DNA of 64,000 nt from Candidatus Omnitrophota bacterium. GTDB lineage: Bacteria; Omnitrophota; Gorgyraeia; Tantalellales; Tantalellaceae. Position 1 is the first letter of the stretch. Each line of letters opens with the position of its first letter. The notes under the pieces are model-generated. The model was not told where the DNA came from and did no database searches. It saw only the letters and a list, made by a program, of their open reading frames with translations. Below, one piece after another: positions 1-9,819 of this stretch. The stretch is from assembly GCA_014728045.1 (NCBI GenBank), contig WJMH01000006.1, positions 52,738 to 116,737 of the forward strand. Reading direction: 5' to 3'. Position numbers and translations under genes: made by a program.

Positions 1-934
1 AATCAAGCCCCGCTGAAACAGAATGTGCCAGATGCACCTGTCCGTCCCGGTTCTCAAGAAGAAAGCTTTTGCTCCCATGAAGCACCCCTATTTTACCCTT
101 CAGAAGGGCCGCCCCGTGTTTGCCCGTAGTTATACCCAGACCAGCAGCTTCGACGCCTATGAACTTTATCTTCTTATCGTCAAAGAAAGGATGGAAAAGA
201 CCCATCGCGTTACTACCTCCTCCGACGCAGGCAACAAGATGCGTGGGAAGTTTCTTTTCCTTTTCCATGATCTGCTCGCGCACTTCTTTTCCTATCACTG
301 TCTGGAAATCCCTTACCATCATGGGATAGGGATGGGGGCCCGCGACCGAACCTATAACATAAAAAGTGTCACGCACGTTAGTGACCCAGTCCCTGATAGC
401 TTCGTTCATCGCATCCTTGAGGGTGCGGGAACCGCTTTCAACCGGTATAACGTTCGCTCCCAGCATCTTCATCCTGAAAACATTAAGGCTTTGCCTGTGT
501 ATGTCTTCGGTGCCCATGTACACGTCGCAATCAAGACCGAACAGCGCAGCAACGGTAGCGGTGGCCACTCCGTGCTGCCCGGCGCCTGTCTCAGCGATAA
601 GCCTTTTCTTGCCCATCTCAACGGCCAGAAGCCCCTGACCGATAGTATTGTTTATCTTGTGGGCTCCGGTGTGCAGGAGATCCTCGCGTTTGAGGTATAT
701 TTTCAGCCCTCCCAGCCGTTTAGTAAGGTTCTCCGCGAAATAAAGAGGCGTCGGTCTTCCCGCATAATCGCGCAGGAAATACCGGAAACGTTCCTTGAAC
801 GAAGCTGACCGGGATATCCTCTTATAGGCGTCTGTCAGTTCCCTCAGGGCAGGCATAAGCGTCTCGGGCACGTATTCGCCCCCGAACTGACCGAAGTATC
901 CCTTACTATCGGGTAATTTAGGTGTTTTTCGCAT
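1..934 (-). CDS. trpB: Tryptophan synthase beta chain (TrpB). The N-terminus lies in the window; the C-terminal part runs off the left edge.
   Basis: Minus-strand translation from ATG 932-934 gives [33 protein letters not shown]...[14 protein letters not shown], the conserved TrpB N-terminus. AAGGAG RBS lies 8 nt upstream. It overlaps trpF by 17 nt. The listed +ORF 23..808 is its antisense. Confidence 0.85.
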
Positions 935-1568
935 TTTCGATGAACTCCTTTAATAATGTGGCATCCTTTTTCCCGGGCTGCTTCTCAACCCCGCTTGAAG
1001 TATCAACTCCGTAGGGCGCAACCGCTCTGACCGCATCGGCCACGTTATCCGGGTCGAGTCCTCCGGCCACGAAAGTGCGGCCCCGGACGTCCTCCGACAG
1101 GTCATTCAGCGCATCCCAATCGAACCTTAATCCGGTACCCCCGTCCCTTTCGGGGTGGTATGTGTCGAACACAAAATAATCAGCGTTCTTGTAGTCTTCC
1201 GGGTAATTACCCCCGTTGGGCACGATAGCACGGTCGACCTTGAAGACCTTCATAACGCCAACAGGTGCTGATCCGGCAACCGACATGCAGTATTCCGGCG
1301 ATTCAGTTCCGTGAAGCTGGACGTGGTCGAACCGTTGGCCGGAGAGGAACTGCTTTACCGTCTCCAGCCGCTCATCCTTAAAAAGAGCCACCATGCCCAC
1401 CTTCGGGTATCTTTTCTTAACGCGATCTATTATACCCACAGCTTCATCGGGCTCGATATGCCTTGGAGTCCCTTTAACGAATATGAACCCCAGAAGGTCC
1501 GCCCCGTATTCAGAGGACCTTTTGGCATCCTCGAAATTGGTTATACCGCATATTTTCACCTTGACCAA
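918..1568 (-). CDS. trpF: Phosphoribosylanthranilate isomerase
   Basis: [15 protein letters not shown]... is a close match to the TrpF N-terminus (e.g. Thermotoga MVRVKICGIT). TTG start with a GAAGGAG RBS. Confidence 0.9.
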
Positions 1569-1595
1569 AATAAAAGCTCCTTCTTGACGGTCCCT

Positions 1596-2372
1596 CTATT
1601 CCCTGATAAGCTCCCTGACTTTCTGCCCGATGTTCTCCGCACGCATGAAAGTCTCCCCTATAAGCACGCAGTTCACCCCGAGGCTCTTGAGGAACATCAC
1701 CTGTTCGTAGGTCTCGATCCCGCTTTCGGAAACTATGACCTTTGTCTCCGGTATAAGACGTATAAGCCTCTGGGTATTGGAAATATCCACGTTAAAATCG
1801 GAAAGATCACGGTTATTTATACCGATTATGGCGGCGTTACTGGCAAGTGCCTTCTCGACGTCCTCCTCGTTATGGACCTCGACCAGAGCGTCCATCCCCA
1901 GTTCCCTTGTAAAAGCCAGGTACCTGGTCAGCTCTTCCTGCGTGAGGATCTGCGCAATGAGAAGAAGCGCGTCCGCGCCGCTTACTAGTGTTTCATAGAT
2001 CTGGTATTCATCGATAATGAAATCTTTTCTGAGAACCGGTATGGTCACTCTCTCCTTGACCAGCTTCAGATATTCCAGTTTTCCGTCAAAGAACCTTTCA
2101 TCCGTAAGAACGCTGATCGCGCTGGCACCCGAAGCCTGGTAAGCAAGAGCGATCCTCAGCGGATCAAAGTCCTGGCGTATTATCCCTTTGGAAGGAGAGG
2201 ATCTTTTGATCTCGGCGATCAGGTTAATATGCCCTCTCCTTGAAATGCTCTTTCTGAACATGCTCTTGGTGTACATCGAAGAGGCCTTATCCTTAAGCTC
2301 ATTGAGCGGCACCTGTTTCTGAGACCTGTCTATCTCCCTGCGCTTCTCCTCAATTATCTTTGAAAGTATCAT
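1596..2372 (-). CDS. trpC: Indole-3-glycerol phosphate synthase
   Basis: 258 aa of typical TrpC length and sequence (..ILAEIKRSSPSKG.., ..IGINNRDL..). ATG start with an AAGGAAGGA RBS. Confidence 0.9.
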   Translation of the reverse strand: MILSKIIEEKRREIDRSQKQVPLNELKDKASSMYTKSMFRKSISRRGHINLIAEIKRSSPSKGIIRQDFDPLRIALAYQASGASAISVLTDERFFDGKLEYLKLVKERVTIPVLRKDFIIDEYQIYETLVSGADALLLIAQILTQEELTRYLAFTRELGMDALVEVHNEEDVEKALASNAAIIGINNRDLSDFNVDISNTQRLIRLIPETKVIVSESGIETYEQVMFLKSLGVNCVLIGETFMRAENIGQKVRELIRE

Positions 2373-2409
2373 TTATCCTTCCTTACATTTTATCGCGCAC
2401 CCGGTGCGG

Positions 2410-7925: not shown

Positions 7926-7932
7926 GACTCTC

Positions 7933-8565
7933 CTACAGTATACCCTTGCTTGAAGGGACCTCGTCCTTTCTTCTTGGGTCTATCCTGGTCGCCCGGTCCA
8001 TGGCGATACCAAGCGCTTTGAACGCCGCTTCAAGATAATGGTGCAAGTCCCCTTCCCCGGTTATCTCAACATGGAGATTCATCGCCATCTTGTTCGCGAA
8101 GCTGGTAAGGAAGTCCTGCGCGTAATGCATCGAATAACCTTCATCGTCCTTGATCGCTTCCTGGAATTTACCTTTTCTTTCAAAAACGAATGCCGGACGG
8201 TTCGAAAGGTCTACCACGACTCTGGCTCTTGCCTTGTCCATGGGTACTTCCGCTGAAGCTGTTCTGGCTATTCCCTTACACTCCCCCAGAGCCTTCCTGA
8301 AAGCTTCGCCCATGGCCAGGCCTATGTCCTCGTTGAGGTGGTGGTTATCCACGTGGGTATCCCCAGTAGCGTAAAGCTCAAGGTCAAAATAACCGTGATA
8401 AGAAAAAAGCGTGAGCATGTGGTCCAGAAACCCTATAGAGGTCGTGATCTTCGTCTGGCCCGTGCCGTCAATGTTAAGAACGGGTATCTTGATCTGCGTT
8501 TCCTTGGATTCTCTGGCGTACTCTATCTTTCTTTCTCTGTATGAACTTTTGCCGAATATTGACAT
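7933..8565 (-). CDS. hisB: Imidazoleglycerol-phosphate dehydratase
   Basis: ..ETQIKIPVLNIDGTGQ..IGFLDHML.. matches the IGPD family. ATG at 8563-8565 is preceded by a GGAGGG RBS. The track ORF has a 9-codon GTG extension. Confidence 0.88.
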   Translation of the reverse strand: MSIFGKSSYRERKIEYARESKETQIKIPVLNIDGTGQTKITTSIGFLDHMLTLFSYHGYFDLELYATGDTHVDNHHLNEDIGLAMGEAFRKALGECKGIARTASAEVPMDKARARVVVDLSNRPAFVFERKGKFQEAIKDDEGYSMHYAQDFLTSFANKMAMNLHVEITGEGDLHHYLEAAFKALGIAMDRATRIDPRRKDEVPSSKGIL

Positions 8566-8592
8566 ATTCCCTCCATTCCCGGTCAGGATCAC

Positions 8593-9819
8593 TTATTCGC
8601 ACCTTATCCCGACTGACTCCCAGTGCTTTTCGAGTTTTTCCAGTTCCGTGAGCTCCTTCACCCATCCGGCGGACCCGGAAAGTGCCTTACGTGAATACGA
8701 GATTATGTGCGAACTCTTAATGAAACTCCTCAGATTAAGACCCGACGAATACCGCGCCGTGCCCCCTGTCGGCAGGACATGACTCGGACCCGCCACGTAA
8801 TCGCCCAGAGCTACCGGGGTATATTGCCCCAGGAAAATGGCCCCCGCATTGGTGATGTTCTTAAGGACCCTCTTTGGTGACTTTACCATAAGCTGGAGAT
8901 GTTCCGGCGCTATTCTATTGGATATTTCAGCAGCCTCATCAAGATTCTTGACCTTGATTATGTACCCCTTCACCTCCGGGTCTTTATGGAGGGCGTTGAA
9001 CACCCTTCTTGAAGGGGTCACCAGAACAGCCAGCCCCTTATGGTGTTCCGCCTGCGCCTGCAGGTCCTTCTTTATGTAATCGATGTTGGCGAACCTGTTT
9101 GCTATGATCAGAACTTCACTGGGTCCGGCAAGCATGTCTATGTCACAGTGACCGAAGACCTGGCGCTTTGCCTCTGTGACATACTCGTTACCCGGACCTA
9201 CTATCTTGTCCACCCGCGGTATGGTCTTCGTGCCGTAGGCAAGGGCTCCTATAGCCTGGGCCCCTCCCACCTTGTATATCTCATCGACCTTTAATAGGTC
9301 GGCGACCACCAGTATATGCGGGTCGATGCTCTTGTACTCGTTTGGGGGGGAGGTGAGAATTATCCTCTTTACCCCCGCTATCTTCGCCGGAAGCACTGTC
9401 ATGTAAACACTCGAAACTAAGGGCACCGTCCCGCTCGGGACATAAACCCCGACCCTTTCTATGGGTTCGAATTTCTCGCCCAGCTCTATACCCGATTCGT
9501 GCTGTATTGACCAGGATTTCGGGACCTGGTTCTTGTAGAACTTGTCGATGTTGCGGATTATCTTCTTGAGAGTGTTCACGATCTCGGGTTTTATGTCCTG
9601 GTAGGCACCGCTTATCTCCGCCTCGCCGACTTTGAGGTCCTTTTTCCTCATGTCAATCCTATCGAAACGTTTGGTGTATCTTAAAACGGCGCCATCGCCG
9701 TCCTTCCGGACGCTTTCGAGTATCCCTGAAACCTTCTTCTGCAATCGCACTCTGCCCTGATCATGTCTGTTGACAAGCCCCTCAAATACCTTACTGCCTA
9801 CTTTAATGCTCCTCATCAT
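8593..9819 (-). CDS. hisD: Histidinol dehydrogenase
   Basis: 408 aa of HisD family sequence (..GPGNEYV..QAEH..). Its ATG overlaps the alaS TGA (ATGA). Confidence 0.93.
   Translation of the reverse strand: MMRSIKVGSKVFEGLVNRHDQGRVRLQKKVSGILESVRKDGDGAVLRYTKRFDRIDMRKKDLKVGEAEISGAYQDIKPEIVNTLKKIIRNIDKFYKNQVPKSWSIQHESGIELGEKFEPIERVGVYVPSGTVPLVSSVYMTVLPAKIAGVKRIILTSPPNEYKSIDPHILVVADLLKVDEIYKVGGAQAIGALAYGTKTIPRVDKIVGPGNEYVTEAKRQVFGHCDIDMLAGPSEVLIIANRFANIDYIKKDLQAQAEHHKGLAVLVTPSRRVFNALHKDPEVKGYIIKVKNLDEAAEISNRIAPEHLQLMVKSPKRVLKNITNAGAIFLGQYTPVALGDYVAGPSHVLPTGGTARYSSGLNLRSFIKSSHIISYSRKALSGSAGWVKELTELEKLEKHWESVGIRCE

Follow-up and report, generated by a model that had tools for sequence, protein, structure and literature searches.

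Gene content and organization of the locus

The window analyzed here is a stretch of 64,000 nucleotides (nt) from a Candidatus Omnitrophota bacterium (assembly GCA_014728045.1, contig WJMH01000006.1, positions 52,738-116,737, forward strand). Its first part, positions 1-9819, carries twelve co-directional genes of amino acid biosynthesis on the minus strand, in which the histidine genes hisD-hisB-hisH-hisA-hisF-hisI are followed by the tryptophan genes trpE-trpG-trpD-trpC-trpF-trpB. Genes were identified by profile searches with NCBIfam/TIGR models, using the curated cut-offs of these models, and with Pfam, and all of them scored above or near the cut-off. The results bear out the identities and the single-strand order hisDBHAFI to trpEGDCFB that had been read from the letters in an original prediction. 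The string of genes starts upstream of hisD: recA, recX and alaS run into hisD without a break, and the 4-nt alaS/hisD overlap and the overlap between recX and alaS make them part of the same string. Going upstream, no sizeable gap occurs until the 204 nt in front of recA. From recA to trpB, the members of the string are as follows.

13039-14094, minus strand: recA (Pfam RecA, E = 1.6e-136), with a strong ribosome-binding site, AGGGAGG
12523-13005, minus strand: recX (Pfam RecX_HTH1 and RecX_HTH2), 33 nt after recA and with a 47-nt overlap with alaS
9816-12569, minus strand: alaS, alanyl-tRNA synthetase (Pfam tRNA-synt_2c, E = 1.9e-181)
8593-9819, minus strand: hisD, histidinol dehydrogenase (TIGR00069, 469.6 bits, cut-off 243.8)
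7933-8592, minus strand: hisB, imidazoleglycerol-phosphate dehydratase domain only (NCBIfam HisB models, E = 5e-64; Pfam IGPD)
7317-7925, minus strand: hisH, glutaminase subunit of imidazole glycerol phosphate synthase (TIGR01855, 224.8 bits, cut-off 105.4)
6580-7320, minus strand: hisA, ProFAR isomerase of the monofunctional type (TIGR00007, 249.9 bits, cut-off 228.95)
5853-6611, minus strand: hisF, cyclase subunit (TIGR00735, 388 bits, cut-off 294.55, alignment from residue 1)
5466-5849, minus strand: hisI, phosphoribosyl-AMP cyclohydrolase only, 127 amino acids (aa) (NF000768, 130.3 bits, cut-off 126; Pfam PRA-CH)
3988-5466, minus strand: trpE, anthranilate synthase component I (TIGR00564, 575.4 bits, cut-off 517.7)
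3428-3991, minus strand: trpG, anthranilate synthase glutaminase (TIGR00566, 245.4 bits, cut-off 121.05)
2410-3417, minus strand: trpD, anthranilate phosphoribosyltransferase (TIGR01245, 425.7 bits, cut-off 199.05)
1596-2372, minus strand: trpC, indole-3-glycerol-phosphate synthase (NF001377, 346.6 bits, cut-off 260)
918-1568, minus strand: trpF, phosphoribosylanthranilate isomerase, with a TTG start (Pfam PRAI, E = 3.5e-42)
<1-934, minus strand: trpB, tryptophan synthase beta (Pfam PALP), first 311 codons, the rest lying beyond the window edge

Because the matches span essentially the entire profiles, none of these genes has the appearance of a pseudogene. The DHHA1 domain of AlaS extends to residue 915 of 917, so that the C-terminus is complete and the overlap of alaS with hisD is genuine. 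At its other end, alaS starts at 12569 (Met1) behind a strong ribosome-binding site and thus overlaps recX by 47 nt; a start at Met17, which would abolish this overlap, was rejected, as the strong ribosome-binding site belongs to Met1. The trpG match begins at residue 68 of a long open reading frame (ORF), which corresponds to ATG 3991, and the start of hisB is more likely ATG 8565, preceded by a GGAGGG ribosome-binding site, than the GTG that abuts hisD. HisB aligns only with positions 163-355 of the model for the bifunctional (phosphatase and dehydratase) HisB. HisI likewise has no HisE domain, aligning only with positions 6-110 of the 208-position HisIE model. A bifunctional HisA of the PriA type was ruled out, since the hisA-trpF model TIGR01919 gave 181.1 bits against a cut-off of 306.45 and a separate trpF is present. 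The window HisI and its nearest relatives (L001-L005 compared; L numbers denote the loci of our comparison) share the motif V(F/Y)RRSKG(R/Q)(L/I)M(L/M)KG(E/A)TSGC in place of the usual FWSRSR..LW.KGE(T/S)SGH of more distant HisI sequences; the later conserved Cys and His residues are kept in the group to which the window HisI belongs.

The original prediction had also held that hisG, hisC and hisE are absent from the cluster. This was confirmed, and Pfam and profile scans detected no HisG, HisC or HisE domain in any scanned ORF of the 64-kb window. The scanned ORFs of the window contain no class-II aminotransferase domain, and no aro genes, hisC or tyrA occur within it.

The genes are joined very tightly. 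Junction values were read from the sequence, with negative numbers for overlaps and positive numbers for gaps in nt, and every junction that had been listed for the cluster (three ATGA, one TAATG, a 32-nt hisA/hisF and a 17-nt trpF/trpB overlap) was found as described:

alaS/hisD: ATGA, -4, the alaS TGA stop overlapping the hisD ATG
hisD/hisB: 0, or +27 with the ATG start of hisB
hisB/hisH: +7
hisH/hisA: ATGA, -4
hisA/hisF: -32, hisF starting inside hisA
hisF/hisI: +3
hisI/trpE: 5464-5468, minus strand, TAATG, -1, stop and start sharing one base
trpE/trpG: ATGA, -4
trpG/trpD: +10
trpD/trpC: +37
trpC/trpF: +27
trpF/trpB: -17, trpB starting inside trpF

Co-directional overlaps of -4 (ATGA) or -1 (TAATG) therefore occur at four junctions, and the largest gap in the string from alaS to trpB is 37 nt, compared with many gaps of ~200-390 nt elsewhere in the window. 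The ribosome-binding site of trpE is weak, with an 11-nt spacer, and that of hisA is weak or poorly placed, with a 13-nt spacer; at the remaining starts the sites lie 1-9 nt away, the hisD site being very close at 1 nt.

Conservation of gene order in related genomes

A comparison of synteny in related genomes, which the original prediction had proposed as a check, showed that independent assemblies share the gene order and have similar overlaps. With one genome taken per species, the closest TrpE proteins come from Omnitrophota metagenome-assembled genomes (57-62% identity), and the window TrpE falls within the Omnitrophota clade in a rough neighbour-joining tree. Four loci (L001-L004) have the arrangement recA-recX-alaS-hisDBHAFI-trpEGDCF, with trpB next in L001-L003. 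The same order is seen from recX to trpE only in L013, and alaS-hisD followed by trp genes is also present on six metagenome contigs (L083, L085, L086, L087, L094 and L154). Protein identity to the syntenic relatives is only 34-75% (AlaS ~50%, RecA ~72%), and the order has therefore outlasted long divergence. The overlaps have persisted in part as well: alaS/hisD is -4 and hisA/hisF is -19 in four relatives each, and hisI/trpE is -1 (twice) or -4 (once) in L001, L003 and L004. Recent horizontal acquisition of either the trp or the his half was rejected, as G+C content (GC) and G+C content at third codon positions (GC3) show a uniform profile over the his and trp genes and the genes around them.

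All three relatives with sequence past trpB (L001, L002 and L154) have trpA downstream of trpB, and trpA is expected just past the window edge in this genome too. Exact-sequence look-ups of TrpF and TrpC, aimed at the sequence past trpB, found no record. Between trpB and trpA, a gene for a DUF6941 protein (PF22091) is present in two relatives (L001:17495-17899 and L002:15945-16349). The gene ruvX comes after trpA, with an overlap in L002 and at a distance of ~900 nt in L001, and the whole biosynthetic block in these two relatives is therefore situated between alaS and ruvX, two genes that are often adjacent in other bacteria. In L004 (L004:14451-15853), the genes that follow trpF in place of trpB encode a PilZ-domain protein and an M48 peptidase, indicating that the end of the trp block is variable. 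This locus is labelled 'uncultured Planctomycetia', yet it is syntenic with the Omnitrophota loci.

We found no description of the Omnitrophota recA-recX-alaS-his-trp arrangement in the searchable literature. According to one recent preprint, Omnitrophota keep full Trp, His and Arg pathways, with hisG and hisC somewhere in the genome; gene order is not described there (10.64898/2026.06.07.730766).

Frequency of his-trp linkage

Adjacency of hisI and trpE extends beyond the close relatives. In a TrpE-centred sample of bacteria, with one genome per species, hisI was directly upstream of trpE at 11 of 76 informative loci; a twelfth locus with this adjacency, L010, was left out of the count because its flank was too short. 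The labels of these loci include Omnitrophota, Poribacteria, Hydrogenedentales, Kiritimatiellia, Verrucomicrobiota and Goldiibacteriota, and the loci are scattered in the TrpE tree. A HisI-centred sample of metagenome loci (60 informative) had trpE no more than 150 nt downstream of hisI in 17 cases and within 1.2 kb in 12 more. At some metagenome loci (L099, L104, L107, L115, L131, L132 and similar ones), hisI and trpE are on the same strand and separated by a constant gap of ~540-770 nt, which suggests one conserved intervening gene or a longer protein of the HisIE type.

The his and trp operons are directly adjacent in Mycobacteria and other Actinobacteria (PMC5445326), and priA is situated in a his and trp context (PMC13055916). 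The original characterization of joint his-trp organization as unusual was thus overstated, given that it is the norm in Omnitrophota-like genomes, occurs under several phylum labels and is known in Actinobacteria; the term is valid only relative to E. coli and Bacillus. The linkage had also been described as joining two pathways related to phosphoribosyl pyrophosphate (PRPP) and anthranilate. Histidine synthesis is not related to anthranilate; what the pathways do share is PRPP, glutamine amidotransferases and homologous barrel enzymes. The his gene whose product uses PRPP, hisG, is outside the cluster.

Candidate transcription signals

Promoters and terminators were sought in a scan of 16 kb, and the counts were compared with those in shuffled sequence. 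The best promoter-like match of the scan lies in the gap upstream of recA:

14138-14165, minus strand: candidate sigma-70-like promoter, TTGAAA-16-TATAAT, 11/12

Promoter-like matches numbered 14, against 12.0 ± 3.8 in shuffled sequence, which is chance level, and the site upstream of recA is for this reason a candidate only. Internal matches were found in alaS at 10066-10039 (10/12, ~220 nt before hisD) and inside hisI at 5704-5677 and 5494-5465. Terminator-like hairpins were somewhat above chance (26, against 16.4 ± 3.9 in shuffled sequence); those on the minus strand were all within coding sequence, and none was present in any intergenic gap of the string. A hairpin of G and C only with a T-rich tail (GCGGCCCTGGCCGC TTCCATTTTT) is located at 5935-5948 on the minus strand, within the 3' end of hisF ~85 nt before the stop; it may act as a partial terminator inside the gene or may have arisen by chance.

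At hisI/trpE, where stop and start have a base in common, and at alaS/hisD there is no space between the genes for a terminator, promoter or leader. An Rfam scan of the whole window gave zero matches, with no T-box, his leader or trp leader. No His-rich leader peptide or attenuator precedes hisD, where the alaS stop overlaps the hisD start, and no Trp-responsive leader (attenuator, T-box or TRAP site) precedes trpE.

Proposed expression of the string and alternative explanations

We think it likely that the locus is a vertically conserved string of the Omnitrophota type, in which hisDBHAFI and the trp pathway are fused head to tail behind recA-recX-alaS and expressed as one coupled transcript. 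Judged from the sequence, a co-transcribed and translationally coupled his-trp unit appears to be the most economical reading. One long polycistronic mRNA would cover the string; its most probable origin is the promoter-like site in front of recA, and weaker internal promoters may contribute. At the ATGA and TAATG overlaps, ribosomes would pass on to the next gene by termination-reinitiation, and translational coupling at overlaps of -4 and -1 is an established mechanism (PMC6728339, PMC10666635). Because their ribosome-binding sites are weak and badly spaced, trpE and hisA are probably the genes most dependent on translation of the gene before them, and trpE output is probably tied to translation of hisI. 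As no His- or Trp-specific attenuator or leader is present, pathway-specific control would have to be allosteric, acting at the enzyme level through feedback on TrpE and on HisG, whose gene lies elsewhere. With respect to the term 'fused his-trp supra-operon' used in the original prediction, the gene layout is as claimed, whereas the status as an operon stays an inference and the unit reaches upstream to recA.

Several observations weigh against a single coupled transcript. Co-transcription is something that we infer from gene spacing alone, and the promoter-like matches inside alaS and hisI could yield separate his or trp transcripts. Junctions are looser in L002 (hisI/trpE +51, alaS/hisD +50) and in L013 (hisI/trpE +123), so that tight coupling is not obligatory, and no trpE match was seen downstream of hisI on some metagenome contigs whose HisI proteins are close relatives (L088-L090).

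The strongest competing explanation, which we regard as possible but clearly less probable, is that the string consists of several overlapping transcription units, with the his promoter located within the 3' end of alaS and that of the trp genes within hisF or hisI, and that the supra-operon mainly reflects genome compaction. Such units can coexist with read-through transcription. The hexamer pairs at 10066-10039, 5704-5677 and 5494-5465 are located where this explanation would place its promoters, and the E. coli and Salmonella his and trp operons have known internal promoters. However, promoter-like matches are only as numerous as expected from shuffled sequence, and the match at 5494-5465 has a -10 element that extends over the initial base of the trpE ATG, so that a transcript from it would miss the trpE start. 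The conserved -1 and -4 overlaps, together with the poor ribosome-binding site of trpE, point instead to a dependence on upstream translation. It is also conceivable, though unlikely, that the juxtaposition has no function and is a neutral by-product of a compact, co-oriented genome, kept by a low rearrangement rate. The genome is strongly co-oriented here, with 28 of the 32 long ORFs of the window on the minus strand and a GC skew that is negative in every 2-kb bin, and the unrelated recA, recX and alaS are attached to the cluster just as tightly. Against this, the block has been kept at ~50% AlaS identity while its surroundings vary, with extra genes between trpB and trpA in L001 and no trpB after trpF in L004. 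The recurrence of hisI followed by trpE under several phylum labels and at 17 of the 60 HisI-centred loci likewise speaks against it, as does the contrast between gaps of at most 37 nt in the cluster and the many wide gaps elsewhere in the window. Finally, an assembly chimera, joining a his contig to a trp contig in error, was rejected, and its probability is negligible: this junction recurs in over 15 contigs that were assembled independently in different studies, and composition is uniform across it. Nothing was found in its favour, although a misjoin is conceivable in principle, since the DNA probably stems from an uncultured organism, the closest relatives all being metagenome-assembled.

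Comparison with known his and trp operons

A close parallel is provided by the actinobacterial his-trp clusters (Mycobacterium and Streptomyces, with their priA context), in which trpE and additional trp genes come after a his block of the same orientation. The his order in M. tuberculosis (Rv1599-Rv1613) and S. coelicolor (SCO2054-SCO2036) ends with hisF-hisI, and trpE comes next. The actinobacterial clusters have no trpF and rely on the dual-substrate PriA, whereas here trpF is present and HisA falls below the cut-off of the bifunctional model. They also contain hisC and interspersed unrelated genes, whereas the genes described here abut or overlap, without hisC, and are joined to recA-recX-alaS. 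The host, moreover, is not a member of the Actinomycetota, as the closest TrpE and identical synteny are found in Omnitrophota genomes.

The aromatic supraoperon of B. subtilis, aroFBH-trpEDCFBA-hisC-tyrA-aroE, in which there is read-through from upstream genes, is similar in that it embeds a trp operon in a longer run of co-directional genes, one of them his-named, and has overlapping stop and start codons. The spacing in our string is compatible with such read-through from upstream genes into trp. In B. subtilis, however, the partners are genes of the aromatic pathway and the shared aminotransferase gene hisC, under TRAP leader control; here they are core his genes, with neither hisC nor a leader. 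The supraoperon concept has been discussed previously (PMC1173090).

The internal gene orders hisD…B-H-A-F-I and trpE-(G)D-C-(F)-B, including the core order hisB-hisH-hisA-hisF-hisI, are shared with the his (hisGDCBHAFI) and trp (trpEDCBA) operons of enterobacteria, in which several junctions are translationally coupled, as is probably the case here. The order trpE-G-D-C-F-B on one strand is also that of whole-pathway trp operons (trpEGDCFBA). The enterobacterial operons differ in being two separate loci, each with a leader-peptide attenuator, whereas here they are joined and have no leader. They contain the fused genes hisB, hisIE, trpGD and trpCF, whereas all genes of the present string are monofunctional, and they have hisG first and hisC inside the operon, whereas hisG, hisC and hisE are missing from this cluster.

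This is an ordinary operon-level arrangement of well-known genes and another member of the linked or fused amino acid biosynthetic operons; its lineage-specific detail is the tight fusion and the attachment to recA-recX-alaS. Its practical value is modest. It offers no new gene, mechanism or system, and it predicts cells without separate transcriptional regulation of His and Trp synthesis. A bolder interpretation, which we consider doubtful, is that hisI followed by trpE is an old, selectively maintained cross-phylum linkage, with an obligatory coupling of trpE translation to hisI. If so, the linkage would be common to Actinomycetota and to genomes labelled Omnitrophota, Poribacteria, Hydrogenedentales, Kiritimatiellia/Verrucomicrobiota and Goldiibacteriota. 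From a recA/alaS housekeeping promoter, Omnitrophota would then express the two pathways, both consumers of PRPP and glutamine, in a fixed ratio and without amino-acid-specific transcriptional control. This would fit a lineage in which, as one preprint reports, the full Trp and His pathways are kept and serine biosynthesis is incomplete in most genomes (bioRxiv 10.64898/2026.06.07.730766). The recurrence of hisI-trpE across phylum labels would merit a phylogenetic survey.

Other genes in the window

Four ORFs (883, 543, 182 and 160 aa) at 41636-45984 on the minus strand and at 48387-49414 gave no Pfam match at E = 0.01. Two giant ORFs and a metabolic gene group were also present:

15371-30331, minus strand: giant ORF of 4986 aa, immediately upstream of cinA-thpR-recA
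49526-64000, minus strand: second giant ORF of >4824 aa, open at the window edge
35409-41401, minus strand: gene for a small MerR-type regulator, then genes for a ferredoxin-fused EtfA, EtfB and an acyl-CoA dehydrogenase (35786-38968), then fabF-acpP-fabG (39053-41401)

The sole Pfam matches of the 4986-aa ORF are two histidine-kinase-like ATPase domains (residues ~2045-2164 and 4359-4475), and it has several hydrophobic stretches. The ORF of >4824 aa contains two or more Ser/Thr protein-kinase domains (for example, at fragment residues 891-1173 and 3329-3551). The presence of two giant ORFs is consistent with Omnitrophota (bioRxiv 10.1101/2023.11.21.568195, 10.64898/2026.06.07.730766).

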